A DNA stretch of 64,000 bases from Corallococcus sp. AB011P. GTDB lineage: Bacteria > Myxococcota > Myxococcia > Myxococcales > Myxococcaceae. Positions within the stretch are counted from its first letter, which is position 1; every line of letters begins with the position of its first letter. A program made the position numbers and the translations under genes. This document shows positions 10,349-47,769 of the stretch, in pieces. The notes below the pieces were generated by a model that did no database searches, had not been told where the DNA came from, and saw only the letters and a list, made by a program, of their open reading frames with translations. The DNA lies in the NCBI RefSeq assembly GCF_003611605.1, contig NZ_RAVX01000011.1, forward strand, positions 4,811-68,810. Reading direction: 5' to 3'.

Positions 10349-10978
10349 ATGCGGACAGCGAAATTCTGGATGGGGACACTGCTGGCGGGCGCGCTGGCGC
10401 TGGGTTACGGGTGCGGAAGCGAGGCGAAGGATCCGACGCCGCAGGACGTGCCACAGCAGCAGGTCCCGGACGCGGGCACCGACGCGGGCGTGCTGCTGAC
10501 GCTCACCGACGCGCAGATCGCCCGCGTCCTGCAGGTGGCCAACGAGGGCGAGGTGATGCTGGGCCAGTACGCCGCGCCGCTCGCCACCACGCAGGCCGTG
10601 ATCGACTTCAACAACCAGATGGTGACGGAACACACCGCCGTGAAACAACGGCTGGACGCGGTGCTCGCGGACCAGGGCATCACGCCCGAGGACTCCGCCC
10701 TGAGCCTCCAATTGCAGACGGACATCCAGGAGTTGATGCAGGTCCTCGCCGGTCCGAACGCACCGGCCGCGGGCACCGCGCTCGACCTGGCGCTGATCAG
10801 CGCGCAGCTCGACGCGCACACCCGAGCCGCCTTCCTCTCCGACAGCCTGCTGACGACGCAGATCACCAACACGGCCCTGGCGCAGGAGGCGCTCACCGAG
10901 CGGCAGGGCGTGCAGCAGCACATCGACGCCGCGGGGGACATCCAGTCGAACCTGGTGCTCCCATCCGCCACGCCGTAG
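10349..10978 (+). CDS. DUF4142-like secreted/lipoprotein
   Basis: ATG 10349 (the track start at 10343 is TTG). Signal peptide MRTAKFWMGTLLAGALALGYGCGS. Repeated (D/T)xxf..A.EGEVMLGQYA / FNNQMVTEHT helical pattern typical of DUF4142. Confidence 0.6.
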   Translation: MRTAKFWMGTLLAGALALGYGCGSEAKDPTPQDVPQQQVPDAGTDAGVLLTLTDAQIARVLQVANEGEVMLGQYAAPLATTQAVIDFNNQMVTEHTAVKQRLDAVLADQGITPEDSALSLQLQTDIQELMQVLAGPNAPAAGTALDLALISAQLDAHTRAAFLSDSLLTTQITNTALAQEALTERQGVQQHIDAAGDIQSNLVLPSATP

Positions 10979-11011
10979 CCGGAGCGCTTTCCGTCTCTGG
11001 ATAAAAATACA

Positions 11012-11042
11012 GCTCGGGCTCTCAGAACCTGAGAGCCCGAGC
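11012..11042 (+). terminator. Perfect 13-14 bp stem-loop downstream of DUF4142 gene
   Basis: gctcgggctctcag-aacc-tgagagcccgagc, preceded by ataaaaatac. There is no T-run, which is common in high-GC genomes. Confidence 0.45.
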
Positions 11043-11126
11043 CTGTGCACACGACCCGTGGGGGAGGATTCGACCCAGGTGCTTTCCAATCGTGTCGGAC
11101 CGGTTTAGTAGGAATTTGGACCGCCG

Positions 11127-12782
11127 ATGCAAAAGCCAACCGAACCGACCTCCGCGCAGAGCGAGCCGTTGACGACGGGCCGGGTCCTGCGCTCCACGTA
11201 TGAGATTGGCACCGTGCTGGGCAAGGGCGGCATGGGCGCGGTGTTCCTCGCGCGCCACCTGCGCCTGCCGGGCAAGCAGGTCGCCATCAAGGTGCTGCAC
11301 GGCGCGGAGGAGCTGTCGGAAGAAGTGGCGGTGCGCTTCCGGCGCGAGGCGGAGATCGCCTCCCGGCTGGGGCACCCGAACATCGTGGAGGTGCTGGACT
11401 TCGATACCCTGGAGGACGGCACGCCCTTCATGGTGATGGAGTACCTGCGCGGTGAGGGCCTGTCGCGCCGGCTGCGCAAGCAGAAGCAACTGCCGCTGGA
11501 GGAGGTCTTCTCCATCTCGCGGCAGATGGGCGCGGCGCTCCAGGTGGCGCACCGTGCGGGCGTGGTGCACCGCGACCTGAAGCCGGGCAACGTGTTCCTC
11601 GTGCCCACGGAAGCGGGCGGCGTCGTGGGCGAGCGCGTGAAGCTGCTCGACTTCGGCATCTCCAAGCTCGTGGACTCGAGCACGGTGCAGACGCTGGACT
11701 CCGTGCTGATGGGGACGCCGCAGTACATGGCCCCTGAGCAGGCCATGGGCCACAACAGCAACGTGGACGCGCGCACGGACCTCTTCGCGTTCGGCTGCAT
11801 CGTCTACGAGATGCTCGCGGGCCGGCCGCCCTACTCCGGCGACAACGTCGCGGAGCTCATCTACCAGATCGTCCACCTGGAGCCCCCGCCGCTCCTGACG
11901 CTGGCGCCCCAGACGCCGCCGCACGTGGTGACGGCCATCTCCCGCGCGATGGCGAAGAAGCCGGATGACCGCTACCCGGACGTGGGCGCGTTCATCCTGG
12001 AGCTGACGGGCAGCCCGCTCCAGTCGCTCTCGGAGGTGAAGCCGGAGCAGCGCGCTCGCCCCGCCAATCCCACGGCCCCGCCGTCGGTGCCGCGTCCGCC
12101 GGACCGCGAGGAGCACATCCCCACGGTGGGCATGCGTCCCCACGCTGGCCGCGATACGTCCCCCCCTCCTTCCGGACCGGAGACGGCGTCCCTGGCCGCG
12201 CAGCCGCTGGCCCCCGCCCGACCGAAGTGGCCGGTGGCCGTGGCCGTGGGGATGGCGGTCATCATCGCGTTCGCGGTCGCCTTCTTCTGGAAGCGCCCGG
12301 GCGTGACGCCGCCCGCCGTCGTCGTGGTGAATCCCCCGGCCCAGCCCCAGCCCCAGCCCTCCACGCCCGTCACCCCGCCCGCCGTGGTCGTGACGCCGCC
12401 GGAGGACGTGAAGAAGCCCGTGGAGCCGGAGCCCCAGCAGACGCAGCCGACGGCGGAGAACTCCACGCAGCCCACGCCGGATTCGCCCACGGTGACGACA
12501 AAGCCGAAGCCTCGCGGCACCCCCGAGTCCATGCCGGACAGCGTGCGCGAGGACCTGGCGGCGGCGCAGAAGGCGCTGGACGCGTCGAACACGGCGGAAG
12601 CGCTGCGTCACATCCGGCGCAGTCAGCGCACGAAGATCACCGGCCTGTCGTTCTCGCTGCTCACCCGCGTGTACTGCCAGCAGCACGACCTGGCGAACGC
12701 GCGCGCGCAATGGACCCGCGTACCGGCAACGGAACGTCCAAGGGTCCGACAATACTGTTCGCAGTACGATATCGACCTGTAG
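11127..12782 (+). CDS. Hanks-type Ser/Thr protein kinase with Pro-rich linker, one TM helix and C-terminal extracytoplasmic domain
   Basis: GKGGMGAVF, VAIKVL, HPNIVEV, HRDLKPGNVFL, DFGISK, GTPQYMAPEQ. TM helix WPVAVAVGMAVIIAFAVAFFW. Confidence 0.85.
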   Translation: MQKPTEPTSAQSEPLTTGRVLRSTYEIGTVLGKGGMGAVFLARHLRLPGKQVAIKVLHGAEELSEEVAVRFRREAEIASRLGHPNIVEVLDFDTLEDGTPFMVMEYLRGEGLSRRLRKQKQLPLEEVFSISRQMGAALQVAHRAGVVHRDLKPGNVFLVPTEAGGVVGERVKLLDFGISKLVDSSTVQTLDSVLMGTPQYMAPEQAMGHNSNVDARTDLFAFGCIVYEMLAGRPPYSGDNVAELIYQIVHLEPPPLLTLAPQTPPHVVTAISRAMAKKPDDRYPDVGAFILELTGSPLQSLSEVKPEQRARPANPTAPPSVPRPPDREEHIPTVGMRPHAGRDTSPPPSGPETASLAAQPLAPARPKWPVAVAVGMAVIIAFAVAFFWKRPGVTPPAVVVVNPPAQPQPQPSTPVTPPAVVVTPPEDVKKPVEPEPQQTQPTAENSTQPTPDSPTVTTKPKPRGTPESMPDSVREDLAAAQKALDASNTAEALRHIRRSQRTKITGLSFSLLTRVYCQQHDLANARAQWTRVPATERPRVRQYCSQYDIDL

Positions 12783-13694: not shown

Positions 13695-14510
13695 ATGACG
13701 CTTCGACACATGGTCATCGCCCTGGGGCTCGTCCTGGCCCCGCAAGCCGCGCTCGCGCTGGATCCGCCCTGGAAGCAGGAGCAGAAGCTGCGCGACCGCA
13801 TGGTGCTGGAGTCCGCGAAGGTCTGCGCGGACGGCAAGGGCCACTACACGGTCCTCATCCCCCAGACGCCCGAGCACGAGGGCGACCTGTTCTACGGGGA
13901 CGGCAAGACGTTCACGCAGGTGGTGCCCGTGGGCTACACCTCCGCCACGGACGGCGCCTTCTTCGAGCCCCGCTTCTTCAACCCCAAGGCCAACGACAAC
14001 TTCCGCGGCACGGACTACCGGGTCGTCTCGGACGTGAAGCTGAGCGACGACTTCAAGACGTGCGCGCTGCGCTGCGGGGAGAAGAACCTGCCGCAGCAGC
14101 CGGTGCCGGCGGATCAGGCCAAGGAGCTCTTGCGCAAGGCCGCCTACCAGCCCAGCCCGGTGAAGTTCCAGCCGTACGCGCTGCTGCGCGACGACAAGGG
14201 CGTGTACTACCTGGTCGAGCGCGGCATCGGCGCGGACAACAAGAGCTTCCGCATCTTCACGGGCCAGCGCGGCCAGGTGAAGCAGCAGAAGATGCTCAAC
14301 GTCGTCACCGACTCGCAGGGAGAAATCTTCTCCACGCAGGGCGGCGACCTGCGCCTCGTGGTGGACCGCGAGGAGCCGTCGTTCTGGGTGGTGAAGAGCA
14401 AGCGCCAGAAGCTGCGCGCGGTGCCGGTGGGTGAGAACCTGCCCTTCATCTACAACGAGCTGGGCGTCTACACGGGCGCGCGGCTGGGCACGCCCTGCGA
14501 CGACGTGTAG
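13695..14510 (+). CDS. Secreted hypothetical protein
   Basis: Signal peptide MTLRHMVIALGLVLAPQAALA; coding bias. Confidence 0.55.
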   Translation: MTLRHMVIALGLVLAPQAALALDPPWKQEQKLRDRMVLESAKVCADGKGHYTVLIPQTPEHEGDLFYGDGKTFTQVVPVGYTSATDGAFFEPRFFNPKANDNFRGTDYRVVSDVKLSDDFKTCALRCGEKNLPQQPVPADQAKELLRKAAYQPSPVKFQPYALLRDDKGVYYLVERGIGADNKSFRIFTGQRGQVKQQKMLNVVTDSQGEIFSTQGGDLRLVVDREEPSFWVVKSKRQKLRAVPVGENLPFIYNELGVYTGARLGTPCDDV

Positions 14511-14540
14511 TCCCGTAACACCGGGGAGCCCCGGGCACGG

Positions 14541-17372
14541 TCAGCCGTTGAGCACCTTCACGGCCTTGACCATGTCCGGGGCCAACTCCTCGTGTTCCAC
14601 GAGGGTGAACCCCAGCTTCTTGCTGACGGCCTGCATGCCGCGGTTGCGCGTGAGGATGTCCGCGACGATGCGGCGCAGGCCCCAGTCCCTTCCAATATCC
14701 ACCAGCCGCCGGAGCAGCTCCGTGCCCAGGCCCAGCCGCTGCGCGGGGTCGCTGACGGTGATGGCGAACTCCGCGTCCTTCGTGCCGCGCAGGCGCGTGA
14801 GCCGGCCCACCGCGAGGATCTCTCCCCCGCCCTTCCCGTCCGGCGACGGCCGCTCGGCGACGAGCGCCATCTCCCGCGCGTAGTCGTTGAAGCAGATTCG
14901 CGCCAGGCGCTCGTGGGCCACGCGCTGGCTGAGCTTCATCAGGCCCGCGTAGCGCATGAACACGGTCTGCTCGGAGAGGGCCTGGTGGAAGCGGCCCATG
15001 GCGGGCTCGTCCTCCGGGCGGATGGGGCGCACCAGGAGCTGCTCGCCGTTCTTCAGCGTGAGCACCTTCGCGTACTGGTGCGGATACGGTTCGATGGCGA
15101 GCTTCGGCAGGGACGCGGCCGCGACGTCCGGTGGGTGCAGCACCACACGCGCGTCCAGCGCGATGATGCGCTCACCGGAGACGAGCAGCGGGTTGATGTC
15201 CAGCTCACGGATGAGGGGCTGCTCCACCACCAGCTGGCTGAAGCGCACCATCAGCCGCTCCAGCGCGCCCATGTCCACGGGGGCCCGGCCGCGCACGCCC
15301 TTGAGCGCGTGGTGGATGCGCGTGCGCTCCATCATCCGCCGCGCCAGCGTGGTGGTGAGGGGCGGCAGGCCCAGGGCCCGGTCCTGCATCACCTCCACCA
15401 GTGTGCCGCCCGCGCCGAAGAGCAGCACCGGCCCGAACTGCGCGTCCAGGCTGCTGCCCAATATCAGCTCGTAGCCGTCCAGCTTCGCCATGGGCTGCAC
15501 GGTGACGCCCTGGAACGCGTCCTGGAGGCCCCGCTCCGCGAGCGCGTCGCGGATGGCGCGGTAGGCCTCCCGCACGTGCGGCTCGTCGCGCAGGTCCAAC
15601 CGCACGCCGCCCACGTCCGTCTTGTGCGTCACCGTGAGCGAGTGCAGCTTGAGCACCACGGGGAAGCCCAGCGCGCGGGCCTTCTCCACCGCCTCGTCTT
15701 CCGACGTGGCGAGCCACGTCTCCACGGTGGGGATGCCGTAGGCGGCCAGCAGGCGCTTGGATTCGTATTCAGACAGGAGGGTGCGGCCGGAGGCGCGGGC
15801 CTCGTCCACCAGGGCGCGCGCCACGTCGCGGGCTCCGCCGGTGGGCTCCTCCGCCAGCGTGGGCGTCTCATAGAGCCCGGCGATGTTGTCCGAGTAGCGC
15901 CACATGTAGTTGAAGACGCGGGCCGCGGTGTCCGGGTAGCCGAAGGTCGGGATGCCCGCGTCATTGAGGATGCGCTCGCCGGCGGCGACTTCCGAACCGC
16001 CCATCCAGCTGGCGAGCACGGGCTTGCCGGGCAGCTTCGCGTAGCCCTTGAGGCGGTCCGCCGTCTTGGTGGGCTCCGTCATGTCCTGCGGGGTGAGGAT
16101 GACGAGCAGGCCGTCGCTGTTGGGGTCCGCGCCGGTGGTCTCCAGGGCCTTCGCGTAGCGCTCCGCGTCCGCGTCTCCCAGGATGTCCACCGGGTTGGCG
16201 TGGCTCCACGGCGGCGGCAGGAAGCCATCCAGCTGCTTCCGCGTGTCGTCGGACAGCACGGCCAATTCGCCACCGCCGGACACCAGCGCGTCCGTGGCGA
16301 GCACCGCGGGGCCGCCCGCGTTGGTGAGCAGCGTGAGCCTGCGGCCGGAGGGCCGGGGCTGGCGGGCCAGCACCTCCGCCATGTGGAACAGGTCCTCGAT
16401 GGAGTCCACGCGCAGCACTCCCGCGCGGCGGAAGGCGGCGGAGAGCACCTCGTCGCTGCCGGCCAGCGTGCCGGTGTGGGACGCGGCGGCCTGCGCGGCC
16501 TGCGCGGTGCGGCCGGCCTTGATGACGATGATGGGCTTGGTGAGGGCCACCTCGCGCGCGGCGGACAGGAAGGCGCGCGCGTCGCCGATGGACTCCATGT
16601 ACAGCAGGATGGAGCGCGTCATCGGATCATCCGCGAGGAAGTCGATGAGGTCTCCCCAGCCCACGTCCAGCATGGAGCCCACGGAGACGAAGGCGCTGAA
16701 GCCCACGGCCTCGCGCAGGCTCCAGTCGAGGATGGAGGTGAGCAGCGCGCCGGACTGGCTGATGAAGGCCACGTTGCCGGGGCGGGCCATGCCCTTGGCG
16801 AAGGTGGCGTTGAAGCCGCTCGTGGGGCGCATCACGCCCAGGCAGTTGGGGCCGATGATGCGCAGGTTCGCGGCCTGCGCGATGTGCAGCACCTCCTGCT
16901 CCAGCTTCGCGCCCTCCGGGCCCGTCTCCTTGAAGCCCGCGGAGATGATGATGGCGCCCTTGACGCCGACCTCCGCGCACTCGCGGATGATGGCCGGCAC
17001 GGACTTCGCGGGGGTGACGATGACGGCCAGGTCCACGGCCTCCGGCAGCGCGCGCAGGGAAGGCCACGCCTTGATGCCGAGCACGTTGGGGCGCTGCGGG
17101 TTCACCGGGTAGACGGTGCCGCCGAACGGGCTGCTGATGAGGTTCCAGAGGACGGTGCGGCCCACGCTGCCGGGCCGCTCGCTCGCCCCCACCACCGCGA
17201 CGCTGCGGGGGGAGAAGATGACCTCCAGCGGCTGACGGGTGCGCTGGTGGAGCAGGTCGATGGAGGGGTCCGTCCGGGCCGGGGGCGTGGCGGGGCGTTG
17301 CTCGTCCATGGTGCGCTCGTATTCGGTGGGTGGCCGTACCGGAGCAATCTCCGGCAGGCCTCCATCGTGCAC
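14541..17372 (-). CDS. Pat/PatZ-type protein lysine acetyltransferase (NDP-forming acyl-CoA synthetase-like domains plus C-terminal GNAT)
   Basis: It aligns along its full length with E. coli YfiQ/PatZ as I remember it ([15 protein letters not shown] CoA-binding; ATP-grasp; C-terminal GNAT ...[25 protein letters not shown]). The start is uncertain: GTG 17372 or ATG 17309. Confidence 0.8.
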
Positions 17373-34130: not shown

Positions 34131-35729
34131 ATGTTCAACGTCATCAACGTCTCCAAGGCCTACGGGCCCAAGAAACTTTTCGAGGAGGTCAACGTCGCCT
34201 TCTCGCCGGGCCGCCGCTACGGCCTGACCGGTCCGAACGGGGCCGGCAAGTCCACGTTCATGAAGATCCTCGCGGGTGACGAGGAGCAGGACATGGGCGA
34301 CATCATCCGCCCGCGGAAGCTGGGCATCCTGCGCCAGGACCACTTCCGCTACGAGAACGACCGCGTCATCGACGTGGTGCTGATGGGCAACCGCCACCTG
34401 TGGGCGGCGATGGACGAGAAGAACAAGCTGCTGGCCAAGTCCGACATCACCGATGAGGACGGCAACCGGCTGGGTGAGCTGGAAGGCATCATCGCGGAAG
34501 AGGACGGCTATTCGGCGGAGAGTGACGCGGCCACGCTGCTGGCCGGCCTGGGCATCGAGGAGTCCTTCCACGAAGAGCCCATGCGCCAGCTGACGGGCGG
34601 CCTGAAGCTGCGCGTGTTGCTCGCGCAGGCGCTGTTCGGCAAGCCGGAGGGGCTGCTGCTCGACGAGCCCACGAACAACCTGGACATCGATTCCATCCGC
34701 TGGCTGGAGAACTTCCTGCATGTGTACGAGGGCGTGCTGATCACCATCAGCCACGACCGGCACTTCCTGAACTCCATCTGCACGCACATCGCGGACATCG
34801 ATTACGAGACCATCATCCAGTACACGGGTGGTTACGACGACATGGTCCGGCAGAAGTCGCAACTGCGCACCCGGGTCGAGTCCGAGACGGCGGAGAAGAA
34901 GAAGAAGATCGCCCAGCTGCAGGACTTCGTGGCGCGCTTCCACGCCGGTACGCGAGCGTCTCAGGTGCAGAGCCGCATCAAGCAGATCGACAAGCTGAAG
35001 ACGGAGGACCTGAAGCGCTCGAACATCGCGCGGCCGTTCATCCGGTTCGACCAGAAGGTGGTCAGCGGTCGGCAGACGCTGATGTTCGAGGGCCTGAAGA
35101 AGTCCTTCGACGGGGTGCCGGTCATCAAGCCGTTCACGGGCCTGGTCTGCAAGGGCGAGCGCATCTGCGTCATCGGCCGCAACGCCGTGGGTAAGTCCAC
35201 GCTGGTGAAGATGCTGGCCAACCAGCTGGAGCCGGACGCGGGGACCATCACCTGGGGCCACCAGGCGACGGTGGGCTACCTGCCGCAGGACCACCACGGC
35301 GTCATCCACAAGGGGACGACGTGCTTCGGCTACCTGCGGGAGATCAGCGAGAAGCTGACGAACGAGGAGATCTCGGGCGTGTTGGGCCGGATGCTCTTCT
35401 CGGGTGAGGAGCGGATGAAGGCGACGGACACGCTCTCCGGTGGTGAGACGGTGCGAGTGCTGTTGTCCAAGCTGATGATCACGCAGGACAACGTGCTGAT
35501 CCTGGACGAGCCGACGAACCACCTGGACCTGGAGTCCATCGCGGCGCTGGCGGAAGGTTTGTCGAAGTTCGACGGCACGGTCATCTGCGTGACGCACGAC
35601 CAGGAGCTCATCTCCGAGGTCGCGACCCGCATCTGGAGCCTGGAGGCGGGCAAGGAAGTGCTCGACTTCAACGGCCCCTACTCCGAGTTCATGGAGAAGC
35701 ACGCGGACGCGGCGCTCAAGCGCCGATAG
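34131..35729 (+). CDS. ybiT: ABC-F family ATPase (YbiT-like), two ABC domains
   Basis: Near-collinear with E. coli YbiT from memory (GPNGAGKST, LSGG..., second Walker A GRNAVGKST). Confidence 0.85.
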   Translation: MFNVINVSKAYGPKKLFEEVNVAFSPGRRYGLTGPNGAGKSTFMKILAGDEEQDMGDIIRPRKLGILRQDHFRYENDRVIDVVLMGNRHLWAAMDEKNKLLAKSDITDEDGNRLGELEGIIAEEDGYSAESDAATLLAGLGIEESFHEEPMRQLTGGLKLRVLLAQALFGKPEGLLLDEPTNNLDIDSIRWLENFLHVYEGVLITISHDRHFLNSICTHIADIDYETIIQYTGGYDDMVRQKSQLRTRVESETAEKKKKIAQLQDFVARFHAGTRASQVQSRIKQIDKLKTEDLKRSNIARPFIRFDQKVVSGRQTLMFEGLKKSFDGVPVIKPFTGLVCKGERICVIGRNAVGKSTLVKMLANQLEPDAGTITWGHQATVGYLPQDHHGVIHKGTTCFGYLREISEKLTNEEISGVLGRMLFSGEERMKATDTLSGGETVRVLLSKLMITQDNVLILDEPTNHLDLESIAALAEGLSKFDGTVICVTHDQELISEVATRIWSLEAGKEVLDFNGPYSEFMEKHADAALKRR

Positions 35730-35743
35730 TCCTTCGCTACTTC

Positions 35744-35800
35744 AGGCAGTGCCAACGCCGCCCGTTTCCGGTCCTCCGGAAGCGAGGCGGCGTTTTCGTG
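35744..35800 (+). repeat. Direct repeat copy A (hairpin-forming about 55-bp element) at left border of low-GC island; also likely intrinsic terminator of the ABC-F gene
   Basis: aggcagtgccaacgccgcccgtttccggtcctccggaagcgaggcggcgttttcgtg. It forms an imperfect 17-bp stem and a T-run. Confidence 0.7.
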
Positions 35801-35896
35801 CGGGTGTCCATCCCTCTCCCGGGTGATGTCGCTTCCTTGAGCGGGTCGGCAAGACTCACGCCAGGCCGTCAGTCCATGGTGGCCTGGGGGTGAGCG

Positions 35897-37456
35897 ATGG
35901 TTCTGTCCATGATGTGGGGACTGTTGGCGTCGCTGTTCGCGGCCTTGTGGTTCCGGTCCCGCTCTCACGTTCACGAGTTGCAGGAGCGGTTCAAGCCCAT
36001 CGTGGACATTGAAGCCGAGAAGAGACGAATCACAGAAGAGATCGCACAAACACAACGGGCCGCCACAAAGGCCCTTGAAGCTGAGCGCCATCGGGCAGCC
36101 CAGGAATTGGCTGAAGCCCGTGGCATCGCTGCCAAGGAGCGCATCGACGAACAGACGCGAGTGCTCGCCCAGCTTGCTCGAGAAAAGGAGTCTTCCGCGA
36201 AGGCCATCGCCGAGGAGAAGAAGCAAGCGGCCTCGGAATGTCACCGCATGCGGGAAGAGGCTTCACGAGCAACGGTGGCCGCCGCACGGTCTGTGACTGA
36301 AGCGGAAGAACAGCGTCAGAAGCTGCTCTTGGAGCAACGGGAGCTGAAAGCCACCATCGTTCGGTTACGCGAAGAGCTTCGTCCCCTGGATGAAGAAGCA
36401 ATTCTCCTCTCCACCGGCTTCTACAAGTCGGTTTACGCCTTCTCCTCCGTCGAGGAGTACGAGCGCCGCCTCGATGCGCTTCGAGAGACGCAGAAGTCAA
36501 TGCTGCAGAACAAGGTGGCGGCGACCTGCTCTCTGGAGTGGGAGGTCAATGGCAGTAAGGCCGAGGGCAGAAAGCAAACGGAGCGTACGCTGAAGCTGAT
36601 GCTCCGCGCCTTCAACGGCGAAGCCGATGCCTGCGTCGCGAAAGTGACCTACAAAAACATCAAGACCATGGAAGCTCGCATCGAAAAGGCAGCGGATGCG
36701 ATCAATGCGTTGACGAAGATCCAGCAATGCACCATCGCGAGCAAGTACGTTGCCCTCAAGCTGGACGAACTGCGCCTGGCTCATGAATACGCCGAGAGGG
36801 TCCAGCAGGAGCGCGACGAGCAGAAGCGCATTCGGGAGCAGATGCGCGAGGAAGAAGCGGCGCAGCGCGAACTTGAGAAGGCGAAGCTTGAGGCGGAGCG
36901 AGAGGCGAAGCGAGACGCGGAGGCCCTGGCGAAGGCGAAAGCCGACTACGAAAGAGCCAAGGGCTCCGAGCAGCAAAAGCTTCTGGAGCGCATCGCGGAA
37001 CTGGAGCGCCGCGTCGCAGAAGACCTGGAAAAACAGAGAGCCATCTCCCAGGCCCAGCTCACGCGGACGGGGCACGTCTACGTCATCTCCAACATCGGCT
37101 CCTTTGGAGAGGGCGTGTTCAAGATGGGAATGACCCGGCGGCTGGTGCCCCAGGACCGCATCGACGAGCTGGGAGACGCGTCGGTGCCCTTCGAGTTCGA
37201 CGTCCACGCCATCATCCGGACCTCGGATGCCCCGGCACTTGAAAGCGCACTGCACAAGGCCTTCGCGAACCGGCGCGTCAACCGCATCAACGAGCGCAAG
37301 GAGTTCTTCCGCGTCGGCCTGGATGAGATCGCGGAGGCGGTCCGCAAGCATCACGGTGAGTTTGAATTGACCCGGATTGCTGAAGCTGCGGAATACCGGA
37401 AGACGTTGGCACTCCAAGAGGAGGAGCGCCTCACGCATGCTGAACGGGCGGCGTAG
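35897..37456 (+). CDS. Membrane-anchored coiled-coil protein with DUF4041-like region and C-terminal T5orf172 (GIY-YIG-like, MUG113) domain
   Basis: N-terminal TM helix MVLSMMWGLLASLFAALWF; long E/R/K coiled coil. The C-terminus GHVYVISNIGSFGEGVFKMGMTRRLVPQDRIDELGDASVPFEFDVHAII...KEFFRV matches the T5orf172 pattern. Local GC is about 58%. Confidence 0.65.
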   Translation: MVLSMMWGLLASLFAALWFRSRSHVHELQERFKPIVDIEAEKRRITEEIAQTQRAATKALEAERHRAAQELAEARGIAAKERIDEQTRVLAQLAREKESSAKAIAEEKKQAASECHRMREEASRATVAAARSVTEAEEQRQKLLLEQRELKATIVRLREELRPLDEEAILLSTGFYKSVYAFSSVEEYERRLDALRETQKSMLQNKVAATCSLEWEVNGSKAEGRKQTERTLKLMLRAFNGEADACVAKVTYKNIKTMEARIEKAADAINALTKIQQCTIASKYVALKLDELRLAHEYAERVQQERDEQKRIREQMREEEAAQRELEKAKLEAEREAKRDAEALAKAKADYERAKGSEQQKLLERIAELERRVAEDLEKQRAISQAQLTRTGHVYVISNIGSFGEGVFKMGMTRRLVPQDRIDELGDASVPFEFDVHAIIRTSDAPALESALHKAFANRRVNRINERKEFFRVGLDEIAEAVRKHHGEFELTRIAEAAEYRKTLALQEEERLTHAERAA

Positions 37457-37481
37457 GCTCTGAACCGCGTGTGCCTCGGTT

Positions 37482-39239
37482 ATGGTTGCGTCATCAATGG
37501 GCTCTGAGAAACTGCTTCCCTCGTTGGATGCGCTTCGTAGTGCGGTGAAAGCCGCCACACGCAAAAAGAAGATCGCATTCCTTGTCGGCTCTCCGCTCTC
37601 GATGCAAGAGACACCTGATGCGCCACAAGTCCCGGGCGTCACAGCAATGCTCCAATTCATTCGGAAGCGGGTTCCTTCCGAGCACCTAGAGCAGTTCGAT
37701 GCGGGACTGAAAGTAGACAGAGAGAATACTTACCAGTGGGCAATGAAGTTCATTCAGGACCGTGATAGCCGATCGGTCGCCAATGAGGTCATTCGAGAAG
37801 CGGTCCTACGAGCCCGGTTGCATCCTGATGCAGATCAGGGGCTTGAGGACGTCCAAATCGATACCGACTTCAGCGGATGGGCACTCCCCCCTGCAACGCT
37901 ACATCTCGGCGGATTGCTTGCTGAACATCCTGGACGTTTCGGTCCAGTCATGACGACCAATTTCGATCCGCTCCTTCCTGCTTCGGTAAAAGCTGCGGGC
38001 GGGGAGGTCCTTCGCACTGTCGTCGACCGCGACGAGCCTTTCAGCCAAGCAAAGCTCTCTGCCTCCAACTTCTCACACCTCGTCTACCTCCATGGCTATT
38101 GGCTGGAGGCGGAGACGCTCCACACCTCGATTGAACTCGCACGCGAGCGCCCCCGCGTCGCAGCCGACATTACCCATGTCTTAACCAGCCACACGCTCGT
38201 TGTCGTGGGATATGGAGGCTGGGATGATATCTTCACTCAGACTCTTGCTGCCATTAGCGCAGACCGCCATAAGCAGGTTGACATTCTGTGGGCCTTTTTC
38301 GACAAAGAGACCAGTGTCGTCCAGGCTCGCAACAAACATTTCCTTGACAGAGTCAGGGAACTGACGGGACGGAATCAACTCCGCCTCTATGGGGGCATCA
38401 ACTGCCATGAACTCTTCGCGAGGCTCCGTGAAGACTTCGGCACATCTGGCACCGCCACAACTCAGCCCCCAAACAAGGCACCCAAACAAGGCAAGGTTGA
38501 ACCGCAGCGGCCAGCACCAATTGCAACAAGCGCCAAAGCCCCTGAGCCGACGACCTCGACGCCTCACAGCACTACGAGCGCGCCTACGCCAACGCCCTCC
38601 GTGCCAAGCATCCCCGTCTCCCCATCCGTTCCGAAGACGGACGCCACGGCCAGTCCTCCGAAATCAACATCCAGCAGAATCCTGCCTTTTGCGGCTGCCG
38701 CGCTGTTTGCTGGCGGCATGGCTGCCGTATGGCCATCCCCCAGCAAAGGCGTGAGCAATGACGTCATCGCCATCCCACCTCCGCGCAATCTGAGACCTGT
38801 CCAGCCGCAGCCCCCGACGACGACCGCTCCGGCCCCGGTACCCGCAAGCACGCTCAGAAGCGTTCGCCAACAACACCAGGTTGTGGCAGCTTCGGACGCC
38901 GAACGCGGAACTCGCGTCTCACAACTTCCCCGGGGGCGCTACGCATTTGTCCCGATGAGCGCCGTTCCCACCTACAGTGCGGACACCACCATCTACGGCC
39001 CCATCCAGGAGGGAATCGAGCTTCACCGCGCGCTAGCGGATGGATCCTTGTATCTCGTGGGCTATGCGGATGCCCCAACCATGGCGGCCCTCGGATATCC
39101 GAAACCTGCGCCCATCGTCATTACCCCCACACCCGGTGGTAGAAGGACGCAGGTCGCGAGCATTCCGGTATCTCGGATGACCACCGCTGAAGTGCGCATG
39201 GATAAAGGCACCCGCGTGTTGGTTCTTCACCTCAACTAA
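37482..39239 (+). CDS. SIR2-like (SIR2_2) domain protein with Pro/Thr-rich linker, single TM helix and C-terminal extracytoplasmic domain
   Basis: IAFLVGSPLS, VMTTNFDPLL, VYLHGYW and VVVGYGGWDD match the DHS-like SIR2_2 fold. TM helix ILPFAAAALFAGGMAAVW. It lies 25 nt after the previous gene. Confidence 0.65.
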   Translation: MVASSMGSEKLLPSLDALRSAVKAATRKKKIAFLVGSPLSMQETPDAPQVPGVTAMLQFIRKRVPSEHLEQFDAGLKVDRENTYQWAMKFIQDRDSRSVANEVIREAVLRARLHPDADQGLEDVQIDTDFSGWALPPATLHLGGLLAEHPGRFGPVMTTNFDPLLPASVKAAGGEVLRTVVDRDEPFSQAKLSASNFSHLVYLHGYWLEAETLHTSIELARERPRVAADITHVLTSHTLVVVGYGGWDDIFTQTLAAISADRHKQVDILWAFFDKETSVVQARNKHFLDRVRELTGRNQLRLYGGINCHELFARLREDFGTSGTATTQPPNKAPKQGKVEPQRPAPIATSAKAPEPTTSTPHSTTSAPTPTPSVPSIPVSPSVPKTDATASPPKSTSSRILPFAAAALFAGGMAAVWPSPSKGVSNDVIAIPPPRNLRPVQPQPPTTTAPAPVPASTLRSVRQQHQVVAASDAERGTRVSQLPRGRYAFVPMSAVPTYSADTTIYGPIQEGIELHRALADGSLYLVGYADAPTMAALGYPKPAPIVITPTPGGRRTQVASIPVSRMTTAEVRMDKGTRVLVLHLN

Positions 39240-39245
39240 CAAACA

Positions 39246-39923
39246 ATGAAACTCAACAACAGAATCCTTTCCCTTGGGTTGATGTCACTCCTCTTGCTTG
39301 CGGGTTGTGGGCCCGAGGACTTCAACCCGGGCCCCTCCAATCCCGGCGTGGAAGATCCGCCGCCACTCGACGAAATTTGCACTGCCGGAAACTGCGCGGG
39401 TTGCTGTGATCCGACCACGAACAAATGCGTCCAGGTTCGCACCAACGACGCATGCGGTGCCAATGGCGTTACCTGCACGAAGTGCGCGACCGGGACCATC
39501 TGCCACCCATCACAGCAGCAGTGCTACACGCCTACCATTCGCACGAAGATCCGGGCCCTGCGTGCCACGATTTCTTCGCATGATCCCGCGGATGACAGCG
39601 ACTGGGATGTCGACGGCTCACCACCGGACGCCTTGATTGAACTGATCTGCCCCAACGCCCAGCCTGCGGTTTCCAGGTCGGAAGAGATTGAGAGCTTCAC
39701 CCCCAACTGGACGACAGGGGGATGTGATGTTCTCAGCACGGATCTGCTTTCCATGCCTGTCCAGTTCAACGTTCTCGATGTCGACGTCATCGTCGATGAC
39801 AAGGTTGCGTCAGCCCAATACCAGTTCACCCAAGCCGACATCGAACGTGGAGTCGTAGAATTGACGGTCTCCAATACACTGACCTCAGTGGTCTTCCAGC
39901 TCACCACCTACTACGCCGAATAG
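39246..39923 (+). CDS. Cys-rich lipoprotein (low-GC copy of a two-member family in this window)
   Basis: Lipobox LLLAGCGPE. Cys cluster GNCAGCCDPTTNKCVQV...CGANGVTCTKCATGTICHPSQQQCY. DGSPPD, TTGGCDV. It is a paralog of 47149..47769. It lies 6 nt after the SIR2 gene. Confidence 0.6.
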   Translation: MKLNNRILSLGLMSLLLLAGCGPEDFNPGPSNPGVEDPPPLDEICTAGNCAGCCDPTTNKCVQVRTNDACGANGVTCTKCATGTICHPSQQQCYTPTIRTKIRALRATISSHDPADDSDWDVDGSPPDALIELICPNAQPAVSRSEEIESFTPNWTTGGCDVLSTDLLSMPVQFNVLDVDVIVDDKVASAQYQFTQADIERGVVELTVSNTLTSVVFQLTTYYAE

Positions 39924-39957
39924 GCCGAAACCCAAGAGCGCCGTTTCTGAGGTTCCT

Positions 39958-40014
39958 GGCAGTGCCAACGCCGCCCGTTTCCGGTCCGTCCGGAAGCGAG
40001 GCGGCGTTTGTCGC
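39958..40014 (+). repeat. Direct repeat copy B at right border of the low-GC island
   Basis: ggcagtgccaacgccgcccgtttccggtccgtccggaagcgaggcggcgtttgtcgcg; about 47/48 identical to copy A with one 1-nt indel. Confidence 0.7.
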
Positions 40015-40301: not shown

Positions 40302-41732
40302 ATGTACCCGACACGCCGTCTTCTGGCCCGTGGACCGTGGCTGTTTGATCTCAGACCGCATCGGCTCATCGTCTTCCACGGAGATGAAGCCGTGCGCCGG
40401 GAGGTCAGTGGAGACGTGCCGAATCCTCCGTCCGCGCCCGTGGTGCTCGCCGCACTGGATGAGGCAAAGGACGCCTGGGTGGGATGCGGGGATCAGCGTG
40501 TCTTCTCCGTGGGGGTCGGCGCAAGCGCTCCCGCCCAGGCCCTTCCGAGGGAGTGCTTCGATCTCATCACCGATGGGGACCGGCTCATCGCAACGGTGGT
40601 GGACGGCGCCCTCAAGCTGACCACCCTCTTCACGACCGATGGATCCGGGCAGCGATGGGAACCCATGACCTTGCCCAAGCCCGTGTCCGCCAGGCACGGG
40701 TACGGATACAGCGAGGGGCGCCCCCACCGTCAGTCCCCCGATGGGGCGTTCCTCGATACGAGCCCCTTTGGCATCACCGTCGTGGAGAAGGGCCGGGGCC
40801 GCGTCTACGTGCTCCGCTCGGGGGCGGCTCAGCCGGAGGGTGCGCTCCAGGTGGAGCCGGGCCATGAGCAGGACATCTGGCGGGCCCAGGCCACTCCCCT
40901 CGGCGTGCTCCTCCTGCTCGTCATCAACTACCGGCAGACGGCGCTCCTCCACTTCGCGCTCGATGGCACCCTGCTCGGATCCATCCCGGGGAGTGATGAT
41001 GATGACGATGAGGAGGAGGAACAGACCTGGGGCGGTGCCGGGGTGTGCGTCCTCGACGCGGCCCGGGCGCTCCTCTTCGTCCAGGACAAGATCCTCCTGG
41101 TGTCCCTGCCCGGGCTCCAGGTGCTCGAGACGCTCGTGGGAGAGTGGCCCCACTTCGTGTCCGTGACGCCCGCGGGTGCTGACCGGTGGTGGGTGGGCGC
41201 CGAGGACAGTGACGCGCTCTTCCTGCTCACCGCCGAGCCTGGACACCCCTTGCACCTCCACGCCTCACACCGTCCGGTGAGCCCGGGCGCGCCGCTCATG
41301 CACGTGGGCTACAAGACGCCCGCATTCCACTGGACCGAGTACACCTCGGCGCCGCTCACTGTGTCCTCGCCCGTGACCGAGACGTGGCGGGCGATGGTGC
41401 GCAATGACGGGACCGCGTGTGAGGCGGTGCGGATCCGCGTGTCCGGGGTGCTCGTCGGCGCTCGCGTGGTGGACGTGAGCGTGCGGTATCGCGGCCAGCC
41501 GCTCCCGATGGTGGAGGAGCACCGCGTGAACCTCGTGGGGAAAACCGCTGGACTGGAGGGAGGGTCCACCGCGGAGCTGGAGGTGACCTTCAAGCCCCGG
41601 AGCGAGGGCTCGGGACCGCTGACCATCACCGTCGAGCCGTGCTCCTGGCAGTGGCAGGGCAAGGACGAGCCTCGCGCCCTCGGAGTGACGGGCCATCCGG
41701 CATCCGTCCAATTCCTGCTCACGGTGGAGTAG
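40302..41732 (+). CDS. Hypothetical protein (476 aa) with acidic insert DDDDDEEEEQ
   Basis: Long ORF with G+C3 bias. The opposite-strand ORF 39885..41261 is low-complexity shadow. Confidence 0.45.
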   Translation: MYPTRRLLARGPWLFDLRPHRLIVFHGDEAVRREVSGDVPNPPSAPVVLAALDEAKDAWVGCGDQRVFSVGVGASAPAQALPRECFDLITDGDRLIATVVDGALKLTTLFTTDGSGQRWEPMTLPKPVSARHGYGYSEGRPHRQSPDGAFLDTSPFGITVVEKGRGRVYVLRSGAAQPEGALQVEPGHEQDIWRAQATPLGVLLLLVINYRQTALLHFALDGTLLGSIPGSDDDDDEEEEQTWGGAGVCVLDAARALLFVQDKILLVSLPGLQVLETLVGEWPHFVSVTPAGADRWWVGAEDSDALFLLTAEPGHPLHLHASHRPVSPGAPLMHVGYKTPAFHWTEYTSAPLTVSSPVTETWRAMVRNDGTACEAVRIRVSGVLVGARVVDVSVRYRGQPLPMVEEHRVNLVGKTAGLEGGSTAELEVTFKPRSEGSGPLTITVEPCSWQWQGKDEPRALGVTGHPASVQFLLTVE

Positions 41733-41777: not shown

Positions 41778-42833
41778 TCACCACTTCCAGAGCAGGGCGC
41801 CGCCTCCGAGCAGGAACGCCAGGCCCACTGCCGCCGCGAGGATCCAGGCTCGTCCCAAGCGGGGCCGCGCCTGGCTCTCCGGGCCATCCGGAGCCGGGGC
41901 GGCGACGGTCGGGTCGTCGCTCGGAGAGACCTGCTGGACGAGCTGGGCCACCTGCCGCGAGGTCACCGGCTCCCCCTCCGAGCGGATGAAATCCTCCAGC
42001 TCCTTCCGGAACGCGTGGCAGTCCGGGTAGCGCTGATCCCGATCTTTCGCGAGCGCCCGGGCGAGGATGGCTCGAAGGGCATCGGGCAGGTCTGGCCGGT
42101 GCTGCTCGGCCGGCACGAGGGGCTCGGACACGACGACCCGAAGCAAGTCCCAGTCGGACGTGGACTCAAAGGGCCTGCGCGTGGTGAGCAGTTCGTAGAG
42201 CACCAGTCCCAGCGAGTAGACGTCCACCCGCCGGTCCACCGGCACGCCCATGATCTCCTCGGGCGCCATGTACCGGTACTTGCTCATGATGGGGATGTGG
42301 TGTTCGGGGGTCCACCGGGCCCGGAAGTAGTCGATGCCGAAGTCCACCACCTTGGCCGTCCCCTGGCGCGACAGGAGAATGTTGTACGGCCGGACGCAGC
42401 GGTGGATGAGCCGCAGCGGCTGTTTCGTCTTGGGGTCGGTGAGGTCGTGGGCATAGGCGAGCCCCTCGCAGGCTTGCGAGATGATGCGCGCGCACAGGGT
42501 CGCCGGCAGGGTCATCCCCTGGACCGACAGGTGCTTGATCACCCTTCGCAGACTGGGCCCATCGATGTGCTCCCTGGCGAGGAAGGATGTGCCGTCCGCC
42601 TCCCCCACGTCGAAGACCCGCACGAGGTGCGGGTGCGTGAGCCGGGCGGCGCTCATCGCCGTGTCGAGGAACATCTCCGGGAACTCCATCTGCTCGGCCA
42701 TGTCCGACCGGAGGCACTGGAGCACCAGCGTCTTCTCGCTGCCCTGCGGGCCGGCGGCCCTGGCCAGATAATCCTCGATGATGCCTTCGGCGAGCAGGCG
42801 GATGCGCTGGTATTTGCCGACGTGGGATGTCAC
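41778..42833 (-). CDS. Membrane-anchored Ser/Thr-kinase-fold protein, predicted pseudokinase
   Basis: The kinase fold is retained (DFG in VVDFGI, APE in YMAPEE, HPHLVRV). The Gly-rich loop is absent (LLAEGIIEDYL), the beta3 Lys is replaced (TLVLQCL) and HRD becomes HRC (IHRCVRPYNIL). C-terminal TM WILAAAVGLAFLLGGGALLW. Confidence 0.7.
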   Translation of the reverse strand: MTSHVGKYQRIRLLAEGIIEDYLARAAGPQGSEKTLVLQCLRSDMAEQMEFPEMFLDTAMSAARLTHPHLVRVFDVGEADGTSFLAREHIDGPSLRRVIKHLSVQGMTLPATLCARIISQACEGLAYAHDLTDPKTKQPLRLIHRCVRPYNILLSRQGTAKVVDFGIDYFRARWTPEHHIPIMSKYRYMAPEEIMGVPVDRRVDVYSLGLVLYELLTTRRPFESTSDWDLLRVVVSEPLVPAEQHRPDLPDALRAILARALAKDRDQRYPDCHAFRKELEDFIRSEGEPVTSRQVAQLVQQVSPSDDPTVAAPAPDGPESQARPRLGRAWILAAAVGLAFLLGGGALLWKW

Positions 42834-47148: not shown

Positions 47149-47769
47149 ATGAAAGTCATCGGCTGTTGGATGTTCGTCCTGCTGTGCGCGCTGTGGCTTC
47201 CCGCCTGCGGTCCCTACGACTGCACCGCGGAGAACTGCGCGGACGGCTGCTGCTCCGCGCTCAATGAGTGCATCCGCTACCGGAGTGACTCGGAATGCGG
47301 CCCCAATGGCGGCACCTGTGAAGCGTGCGCGGAAGGCAGTGTCTGCCGGCTCGACCAGCGCGCCTGCTACGCGGGCGTGATGCGCACCTACGTGCAGCCC
47401 CGGCGGGCCGTCATCGCGGACGTCGACCCGGACACGGGCGAGGACTGGGACTCCGACGGCTCCCCGCCGGACGTCGTCGTGGAGATGAAGTGTCCCTCCG
47501 CTCCCGAGCGCTCCCGCACCCCCGAGGACGAGAGCTGGGACCCCGAATGGCGCTCCGGCGGCTGCCAGGTCATCACCTCCAACCTCCTGCGCTACCCGCT
47601 CGAAATCTCCATCTTCGACAACGACGACTTCACCTTCGATGACGAGTTCGGCGGCCTCTCCTACCAGGTCACCCGCGCGGACCTGAACCTGGGCCGCATC
47701 GAGCTCTCCATCCCGCCCATCGTGAAGACGCTCGTCTTCGACCTGAGCCACAACTACGCGCCGCAATGA
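47149..47769 (+). CDS. Cys-rich lipoprotein, high-GC paralog of 39246..39923
   Basis: Lipobox LWLPACGP. ENCADGCCSALNEC...CGPNGGTCEACAEGSVCRLDQRACY. DGSPPD, RSGGCQV. Confidence 0.65.
   Translation: MKVIGCWMFVLLCALWLPACGPYDCTAENCADGCCSALNECIRYRSDSECGPNGGTCEACAEGSVCRLDQRACYAGVMRTYVQPRRAVIADVDPDTGEDWDSDGSPPDVVVEMKCPSAPERSRTPEDESWDPEWRSGGCQVITSNLLRYPLEISIFDNDDFTFDDEFGGLSYQVTRADLNLGRIELSIPPIVKTLVFDLSHNYAPQ

Follow-up and report, generated by a model that had tools for sequence, protein, structure and literature searches.

The SIR2 effectors of Thoeris, DSR and SIR2-HerA are activated by oligomerisation, and their output is NAD+ depletion. Thoeris combines ThsA (SIR2-SLOG or TM-Macro) with the TIR-domain protein ThsB, and DSR1 and DSR2 each consist of one SIR2 protein of >1000 amino acids (aa) whose long C-terminal part is a cytoplasmic sensor region. 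For the SIR2, PNP and Lamassu-type effectors considered here, the known triggers are cues inside the cytoplasm, such as a phage protein, a nucleotide signal or DNA ends. Here we describe an island in a 64,000-nucleotide (nt) stretch of Corallococcus sp. AB011P (contig NZ_RAVX01000011.1, positions 4,811 to 68,810 of the forward strand; hereafter the window). It holds a nuclease gene (gene 1), a gene for a SIR2 protein with a predicted transmembrane (TM) segment and an outside domain (gene 2) and a gene for a C2-domain protein (gene 3).

Kiwa and Zorya are known envelope-level sensors (review PMC13434031). PD-λ-1, which was discovered by Vassallo et al. 2022 (PMC9519451) and renamed SNIPE by Saxton et al., Nature 2026 (PMC13190303), is a single-pass inner-membrane protein with an N-out topology. 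Its DUF4041 domain binds DNA and the tape-measure protein, its GIY-YIG domain cleaves phage DNA during injection, and it is sufficient alone in E. coli. One TM segment is found in 59% of SNIPE homologues, and the N-terminal region is highly variable (PMC13190303).

We read the island as a horizontally acquired three-gene insert with two separate immune modules, and give this reading a probability of about 60%. One module is SNIPE alone. The other, formed by gene 2 and gene 3, is an undescribed pair that probably links a signal from the envelope with the depletion of NAD+. Three co-oriented (+) open reading frames (ORFs) lie between 35.8 and 39.95 kb, all enclosed by direct repeats. Their features are as follows (KD, Kyte-Doolittle hydropathy; pLDDT, predicted local distance difference test).

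35745..35795, +: left direct-repeat copy, 51 nt; terminator-like hairpin 3' of an ABC-F gene (stop at 35729)
35897..37456, +: gene 1, 519 aa, SNIPE / PD-λ-1 homologue
37482..39239, +: gene 2, 585 aa, 25 nt past gene 1; order head, linker, TM segment, linker, C-domain
37497..38471, +: SIR2_2 head of gene 2, aa 6-330, by Pfam SIR2_2 and invariant motifs
38679..38732, +: single predicted TM segment of gene 2, aa 400-417 (ILPFAAAALFAGGMAAVW), KD 2.0, with Pro/Ser/Thr-rich low-complexity linkers on both sides
38844..39236, +: C-domain of gene 2, aa 455-585, about 130 aa, mixed α/β, predicted extracytoplasmic
39246..39923, +: gene 3, 225 aa; begins 6 nt past the gene 2 stop
gene 3, aa 1-21, +: signal peptide with lipobox LLAG/C
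39366-39530, +: Cys-rich region of gene 3, aa 41-95, 10 invariant Cys
39531-39920, +: C2 domain of gene 3, aa 96-225, pLDDT >90, by Foldseek
39958..40009, +: right direct-repeat copy, 52 nt; begins 34 nt past the gene 3 stop

The initial annotation had proposed that gene 1 and gene 2 form a candidate two-gene anti-phage module. Its two ORFs and the 25-nt gap between them are exactly as it gave them. The repeats enclose three genes, however, and gene 3, the actual partner of gene 2, had been overlooked. The proposed pairing itself is confined to Corallococcus, since Myxococcus-type gene 2 follows an HsdR_N gene or another gene.

Judged by its sequence, gene 1 is a full-length, ordinary SNIPE, i.e. 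an already known single-gene system. DUF4041 (Pfam PF13250, now named SNIPE) covers aa 233-288 (36593-36760) over the full model (1.9e-22, 79.3 bits against a cut-off of 27), and a T5orf172/MUG113 domain of the GIY-YIG type covers aa 392-484 (37070-37348; 4e-17, T5orf172 62.9 bits). In PADLOC, residues 79-513 matched positions 41-478 of 496 of the PD-Lambda-1 model PDLC03977 (1.5e-150, 500 bits). A hydrophobic segment at aa 1-19 (mean KD 2.0) is the predicted membrane anchor; an N-terminal anchor occurs in about 66% of SNIPE homologues. The N-terminal segment and the T5orf172/MUG113 domain had been recognised from the start. For the stretch of ~350 aa between them, which had been read as a coiled coil, the composition (residues 30-390: 17% Glu, 17% Ala, 11% Arg, 9% Lys and 2 Pro) fits a long helical region. 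As gene 1 agrees with the published features of SNIPE, including the segment at aa 1-19, a membrane-anchored T5orf172 protein is the ordinary SNIPE architecture.

A DUF4041 protein from a lambdoid region of an E. coli plasmid had 46% identity to gene 1 over 409 aa, and the alignment shared GHVYVISNIGSFGE, KMGMTRR, FEFDVHA, ALESALH and RKEFF. Residues 168-510 were 46-58% identical to plasmid DUF4041 proteins of Bacteroidota, Spirochaetota and Proteobacteria, and the first ~167 residues matched nothing. A PDB sequence search with gene 1 gave no direct match. Hence gene 1 shares the whole SNIPE layout (N-terminal TM segment, long helical region, DUF4041, C-terminal GIY-YIG domain, single gene) and differs only in the variable N-terminal region, as expected (PMC13190303). 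The Corallococcus copies precede the SIR2/C2 pair. This was not so in the other phyla examined: three unrelated SNIPE loci, in E. coli, Hymenobacter and Leptospira, had no SIR2 neighbour.

The conserved unit was sought by comparing loci. Corallococcus and Myxococcus supplied most of the full-length gene 2 homologues, and a few others came from metagenome contigs. The complete loci read comprised eight of the SIR2 type and two of the FMO type. The gene orders were as follows.

C. coralloides (L001) and C. praedator (L005): ABC-F / Hhe (PDC-S37) helicase-nuclease / SNIPE / SIR2-TM / gene 3 homologue
Myxococcus spp. and two metagenome contigs (L002-L004, L007, L008, L010): HsdR_N protein of 402-412 aa / SIR2-TM / gene 3 homologue
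metagenome contig L009: unrelated upstream gene / SIR2-TM / gene 3 homologue
metagenome contig L016: FMO-type head-TM-C-domain / gene 3 homologue, 0-nt gap
Melittangium boletus (L017): FMO-type head-TM-C-domain / gene 3 homologue, 0-nt gap (32% identity, 1e-29)

Gene 2 and gene 3 were adjacent and co-oriented in all eight complete SIR2-type loci, with gaps of 6-116 nt. A C-domain after a single TM segment, with a gene 3 homologue directly downstream, was present in 10 of the 10 complete loci (8 SIR2-type, 2 FMO-type). In the Melittangium locus, neither a SNIPE gene nor an HsdR_N gene was found upstream. Because the pair persists across upstream genes and head types, the conserved unit is, on these alignments, the TM segment and C-domain together with gene 3, not gene 1 with gene 2. 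The second FMO-type locus, L016, was the single locus from a metagenome scan with a narrow C-domain alignment; a scan of genome contigs with gene 2 alone returned two loci, one of them useful.

SNIPE lay directly upstream of gene 2 in four of the four Corallococcus-type loci (the window, L001, L005 and the fragment L011), with gaps of 25-39 nt. L011 (GCA_004211055.1, labelled as a Hymenobacter sp. metagenome-assembled genome, MAG) was counted only as the fourth SNIPE-SIR2 adjacency. On this 7.6-kb contig, Rep3/SocA plasmid genes adjoin the C-terminal end of a Corallococcus-like SNIPE and a SIR2-TM gene that is truncated. Its gene 2 is out of frame past the TM segment, and it looks like an assembly or binning chimera. 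We rejected the HsdR_N protein as a swapped-in analogue of SNIPE. It is 83-91% identical between loci, syntenic beside a fatty-acid desaturase gene and absent from L009 and L017, and its slow evolution, synteny and absence from these two loci mark it as a resident neighbour. In L017 (11030-15032), an Imm11 / AHH-nuclease toxin / Imm11 cluster follows the FMO-TM-C-domain and C2 pair; the module can therefore occupy islands of inter-bacterial conflict in addition to anti-phage islands.

The C-domain family has the motifs LRxxHxV, LPxGxFGFV, EVHR, LVGYV and SIPFxRI. Its structure model reached a pLDDT of 92 and a predicted TM-score (pTM) of 0.85. There was no Pfam family match and no significant structural relative in the PDB, and with the C-domain a BFVD fold search and a scan of viral contigs both returned nothing. 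An exhaustive HMMER search over 1.84 billion representatives found 34 relatives. The non-SIR2 relatives carried PNP_UDP_1 heads (one also with EAD5) or FAD/NAD(P)-Rossmann heads of ~440 aa; further relatives were small proteins of a TM segment and a C-domain, and one secreted protein had three tandem C-domains. Nearly all multi-domain relatives had the same layout, i.e. head, low-complexity linker, one hydrophobic segment, linker and C-domain. Members with a named source came from Archangium, Melittangium, a Myxococcaceae MAG and Corallococcus.

The heads themselves resemble known effectors. The Rossmann head of relative P0103 matched Lamassu LmuA in PADLOC (9e-91), and we take this LmuA-matching head to be the FMO subtype. 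The PNP heads of P0106 and P0107 matched the CBASS model 'Effector PN-superfamily' (1e-28 and 1e-22). Since sister proteins with the same TM segment and C-domain bear LmuA-type or CBASS PN heads, the cytoplasmic head position is an interchangeable slot, and known effector domains of immune systems occupy it.

The head of gene 2 is placed in the cytoplasm and its C-domain in the periplasm by prediction, because no signal peptide precedes the head and the protein crosses the membrane with one TM segment only. P0104 supports this topology. This protein (526 aa, from a Logan metagenome) has a signal peptide and three tandem C-domains without an enzymatic head. It shows that the C-domain works outside the cytoplasm, and it might be a decoy or soluble binder. 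One Corallococcus genome (P0100 and P0007) encodes both a 527-aa gene 2 homologue and a separate 190-aa protein of a TM segment and a C-domain. The latter is 46% identical to the C-domain of gene 2 in the window and may be an orphan sensor or a remnant.

Gene 2 is annotated at NCBI as 'SIR2 family protein' (100% identical), with the start at M6, i.e. 580 aa. SIR2_2 (PF13289) matched aa 156-277 with 30.1 bits against a gathering cut-off of 24.5, and the homologues were all PF13289. The predicted catalytic residues are N160 (in TTNFD, 37959-37961) and H204 (in HLHGYW, 38091-38093); both, as well as GYGGWDD, were unchanged across 25 relatives. A profile alignment placed TTNFD/HLHG of gene 2 onto TTNFD/HIHG of human FAM118B, a SIR2-like protein whose structure has been solved. 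FAM118B was reached by profile only, and a PDB sequence search with the head gave no direct match. The head is predicted to be an NADase. It is followed by a Pro/Ser/Thr-rich linker (aa 331-399), and a second, Pro-rich linker follows the TM segment. An equivalent TM segment was found in relatives bearing other heads.

For gene 2, most of what the initial annotation had read from the sequence was borne out. The SIR2_2 head, the Pro/Thr-rich linker, the one TM segment and the predicted outside C-domain (here ~130 aa) were confirmed by Pfam, KD and alignment, and the catalytic Asn and His that it named are present in all 25 aligned sequences. Its proposed check with PADLOC returned PD-Lambda-1 for gene 1, weak SIR2-domain-level matches (27-38 bits) for gene 2 and no model match for gene 3. 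Hence the statement that the pair was not recognised as a described system fails for gene 1 and stands for gene 2. The anchor of gene 1 is that of an ordinary SNIPE. The membrane topology that had been called unusual is that of gene 2, for which PADLOC and the literature searched gave no matching described system. A search of phage records with the whole of gene 2 gave no match.

Gene 3 encodes a protein that is probably secreted, and probably a lipoprotein in Corallococcus to judge from its N-terminus. The Corallococcus copies have a canonical lipobox, and those of other genera keep the invariant Cys within a non-canonical one. The C-terminal part matched the C2 domain of cPLA2 in Foldseek (7e-7, TM-score 0.73), and a perforin C2 domain was matched too. 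Two clusters of invariant Asp (D113/116/121/123/128 and D178/180/184/185) lie in two inter-strand loops. In the structure model, the C-terminal domain is a C2 domain built as a β-sandwich of eight strands, with the Asp clusters placed as in Ca2+-binding C2 domains. Binding of Ca2+ and lipid is thus putative.

A standalone paralogue of gene 3 lies further downstream in the window.

47149-47769, +: standalone gene 3 paralogue, 206 aa; 38% identity, 3e-49; weak Pfam C2 match; GC3 (G+C content at third codon positions) 0.91

Its relative position is conserved in two other species, C. coralloides (L001, about 14464-15084) and C. praedator (L005, about 10573-11298), and related standalone paralogues were found in Myxococcus and Archangium. 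This paralogue may be an ancestral envelope protein and the source of the island copy. In three Myxococcus loci (L012-L014, 6453-9232), a gene 3 paralogue stands between a PIN-domain gene and a convergent gene for a 508-aa PF25302 'NADase_transloc' protein, which is another NAD-related neighbour of a C2 lipoprotein.

Within the same loci, the identities were 45-54% for SIR2-TM and 47-69% for gene 3, compared with the 83-91% of the HsdR_N protein. Hence gene 2 and gene 3 evolve fast beside a slow neighbour. Among the three Corallococcus loci, the identities per part were as follows.

window vs L001: SIR2 head 54%, C-domain 90%, gene 3 Cys-rich region 84%, SNIPE 71%
window vs L005: SIR2 head 70%, C-domain 49%, gene 3 Cys-rich region 62%, SNIPE 70%
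L001 vs L005: SIR2 head 54%, C-domain 49%, gene 3 Cys-rich region 53%, SNIPE 82%

The head, the sensor module and SNIPE are each closest between a different pair and thus have different histories. The pattern fits recombining modules, with the C-domain travelling with gene 3.

None of the described systems compared here accounts for gene 2. The nearest relatives of its head (about 37% identity over about 300 aa) are SIR2-nSTAND5-TPR proteins of ~940 aa, which are Avs-like and share TTNFD / HLHG / GYGGWDD. An Avs-like STAND system was rejected since these relatives have PF25199 and TPR, and gene 2 has neither. Where the relatives have the NTPase and the TPR sensor, gene 2 has a linker, a TM segment and a domain in the periplasm, which would put sensing outside the cytoplasm. 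Thoeris was rejected: no ThsA or ThsB match was found by PADLOC in the four proteins, and there is no TIR gene in the cassette. DSR1/DSR2 was rejected because gene 2 has only 585 aa, contains a TM segment and an outside domain of 130 aa, and gave no PADLOC DSR match. For SIR2-HerA, an adjacent HerA ATPase is missing, the neighbours being SNIPE and the C2 protein. In the case of SIR2-APAZ / short pAgo (SPARSA), the Aga_SIR2 match was limited to the SIR2 core (about 130 aa, ≤38 bits), and there is no pAgo gene. With Thoeris ThsA, DSR1/2, SIR2-HerA and SIR2-APAZ/pAgo, gene 2 shares a SIR2_2-type head with catalytic Asn and His, and by analogy NAD+ depletion is the likely output. It lacks the SLOG, HerA, pAgo/APAZ or DSR sensor region and the partner genes.

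Lamassu was rejected as well: no LmuA or LmuB match was obtained for the window proteins, and the LmuA-like head occurs only in the cousin P0103. Lamassu LmuA (FMO) heads and CBASS PNP heads sit on sister proteins with a TM segment and a C-domain, while the window protein carries SIR2. At L017, no LmuB/SMC or CD-NTase partner was seen. The proposed logic of gene 2, a periplasm-exposed membrane sensor acting on a cytoplasmic effector, is the same as in Kiwa KwaA/KwaB and Zorya ZorAB-CD (PMC13434031). In gene 2, however, the effector is fused to the sensor, there is a C2 partner, and as output one would expect the loss of NAD+, not the binding or cleavage of DNA. Animal Toll-like receptors (TLRs) are likewise single-pass, with the sensor outside and an enzymatic or signalling head inside, and SARM1 may be compared by analogy. 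There is no sequence or fold relationship between gene 2 and Kiwa, Zorya, TLRs or SARM1. No description of gene 2 with gene 3 was found in the literature searched, and there was no PADLOC system match. The pair is a new combination: the effector heads are known, the extracytoplasmic domain is new, and a C2 protein is the partner.

The cassette between the two repeat copies (35796-39957) measures 4.2 kb. The copies are identical except for one extra base in the second. Both form hairpins with an 18-bp stem (left: -38.8 kcal/mol, z -5.05; right: -42 kcal/mol, z -6.6). The sequence is single-copy in C. coralloides, where BLAST located it after ABC-F. The ABC-F gene upstream has its terminator in the left copy, and the right copy probably ends transcription of the island operon. 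No terminator-like sites were found between genes 1, 2 and 3. The GC content of the island is 0.58-0.61, compared with about 0.70 in the surroundings. GC3 is 0.75, 0.62 and 0.70 in genes 1, 2 and 3, and 0.90-0.97 in the neighbours (ABC-F, tgt and a nearby kinase). The island looks horizontally acquired. That it is a repeat-flanked, low-GC defence island, as initially stated, is supported by GC, GC3, the 51/52-nt repeats and the presence of Hhe at the same site in the following two loci.

L001 1184-6382 and L005 1164-6347: DUF4011 helicase with an MTES_1575 nuclease domain, 1727-1732 aa, directly upstream of SNIPE; PADLOC PDC-S37 and Hhe, E 0 and 2.9e-285

Because this extra Hhe/PDC-S37 gene occupies the ABC-F-downstream site in two other Corallococcus species (C. 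coralloides and C. praedator), the best reading of the site is a variable defence hot spot. Just beyond the right repeat, a 476-aa ORF (40302-41732, +) had no family match save a weak one to CARDB, and its GC3 (0.845) is intermediate. The stretch from 40 kb to a pentapeptide gene at about 43 kb is unlike C. coralloides; therefore the variable region reaches past the repeat-bounded cassette. A Ser/Thr protein kinase gene (41778-42833, -; 351 aa) matched many PADLOC PD-T4-6 models (best 1.2e-57). As myxobacteria encode very many such kinases and the PD-T4-6 models are generic, it is probably not a defence gene.

Several points weigh against two separate modules with an immune pair. Part of them concerns the pair as an anti-phage system. 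We infer its anti-phage role from guilt by association and shared domains, and PADLOC has no model for gene 2 beyond the weak SIR2-domain matches and none for gene 3. The TM segment of gene 2 is Ala/Gly-rich and moderately hydrophobic, and it falls below the KD threshold of 1.6 in two homologues. For gene 3, paralogues of 32-38% identity exist as solitary core genes of host-like character, and an HMM (hidden Markov model) scan of those loci found no C-domain ORF beside them, so that the C2 protein family is not intrinsically tied to the gene 2 module. In a Mantel test over all eight loci, the C-domain and gene 3 were correlated (r 0.82), but so were SIR2 and gene 3 (r 0.76). All parts covary within the Myxococcus-type loci, and the test gives no clean split from shared descent. 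Specific co-evolution of the C-domain and gene 3 hence depends mainly on one mosaic trio, and adjacency across head types is the stronger argument for the pairing.

The place of SNIPE is a further point. It stands directly upstream in all four Corallococcus-type loci and inside the same repeat-bounded cassette, and cooperation is possible. The three genes might then be one obligate system, e.g. with SNIPE as a first line that signals to, or is backed by, the SIR2 NADase. The short gaps, the single cassette without an internal terminator and the predicted inner-membrane location of both SNIPE and gene 2 agree with this. We nevertheless find it improbable, since SNIPE is sufficient alone in E. 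coli (PMC13190303) and occurs without a SIR2 partner in other phyla. Moreover, no SNIPE accompanies gene 2 and gene 3 in Myxococcus or at L008-L010, nor their FMO-type cousin in Melittangium, and the parts disagree in their history: L001 and L005 are the closest pair for SNIPE (82%), the window and L005 for the SIR2 head (70%) and the window and L001 for the C-domain (90%). A purpose other than phage defence is somewhat easier to envisage, though still unlikely. Among hits with an organism name, the family is confined to Myxococcota, a group in which conflict between kin groups and cell death during development are prominent. Gene 2 and gene 3 could thus be a conflict or cell-death module that depletes NAD+ upon non-kin contact, outer-membrane exchange, envelope-targeting toxins or development. 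One PNP-type relative bears EAD5, an adaptor domain from conflict systems of multicellular bacteria, the Melittangium locus abuts the AHH toxin / Imm11 cluster, a TsiV immunity-like gene lies near one Myxococcus locus, and the periplasm, towards which the sensor is turned, is where toxins delivered by contact and lipoproteins exchanged between cells arrive. On the other hand, the module in Corallococcus lies between genuine anti-phage genes (Hhe and SNIPE), each of the three types of head is known chiefly from anti-phage effectors, and the benefit of suicide against a competitor is less obvious than that of abortive infection. Least credible by a wide measure is a housekeeping role, with gene 2 as a signalling enzyme (e.g. 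an envelope-regulated sirtuin-type deacylase) and gene 3 as an ordinary envelope lipoprotein. The standalone paralogues are core genes (GC3 0.91) and the Myxococcus locus is syntenic across species, but the head is SIR2_2 and not a classical sirtuin, its nearest relatives are fused to STAND NTPases, and it is exchangeable with Lamassu-FMO and CBASS-type PNP heads. The strongly atypical GC3, the fast divergence and the repeat-flanked insertion also speak against it.

Under the reading of SNIPE plus a separate immune pair, the C2 protein and the periplasmic C-domain would form the sensor, presumably in physical contact. An envelope event, such as penetration by the phage tail, DNA injection, or exposure of Ca2+ or lipid sensed by the C2 domain, would alter the interaction of the C-domain with the C2 protein. 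Gene 2 would then cluster in the membrane and bring the SIR2 heads together, and once clustered the heads would hydrolyse NAD+. The infected cell would arrest or die (abortive infection), while the neighbouring SNIPE would act independently and earlier. Such envelope-sensing logic is plausible since Kiwa, Zorya and SNIPE are known envelope-level sensors.

A bolder and more tentative version, which we hold to be possible but would not favour, extends this to the whole family. Gene 2 and gene 3 might be a myxobacterial receptor-like immune family, in which a periplasmic domain of a new fold and a Ca2+/lipid-binding C2 sensor detect phage penetration, and one TM helix switches a SIR2, FMO or PNP head. 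If this were true, it would be a bacterial counterpart of TLR/SARM1-style receptors, with abortive infection triggered outside the cytoplasm. What is new here is that the same effector heads are wired, via a single membrane helix, to an outside domain with a C2 partner. If the trigger is phage entry, the pair would add a receptor-like route from the envelope to a suicide effector alongside Kiwa, Zorya and SNIPE, and it would give the first proposed immune role for a bacterial periplasmic C2 domain. Head swapping and mosaic recombination illustrate how modules are assembled in myxobacterial defence hot spots.

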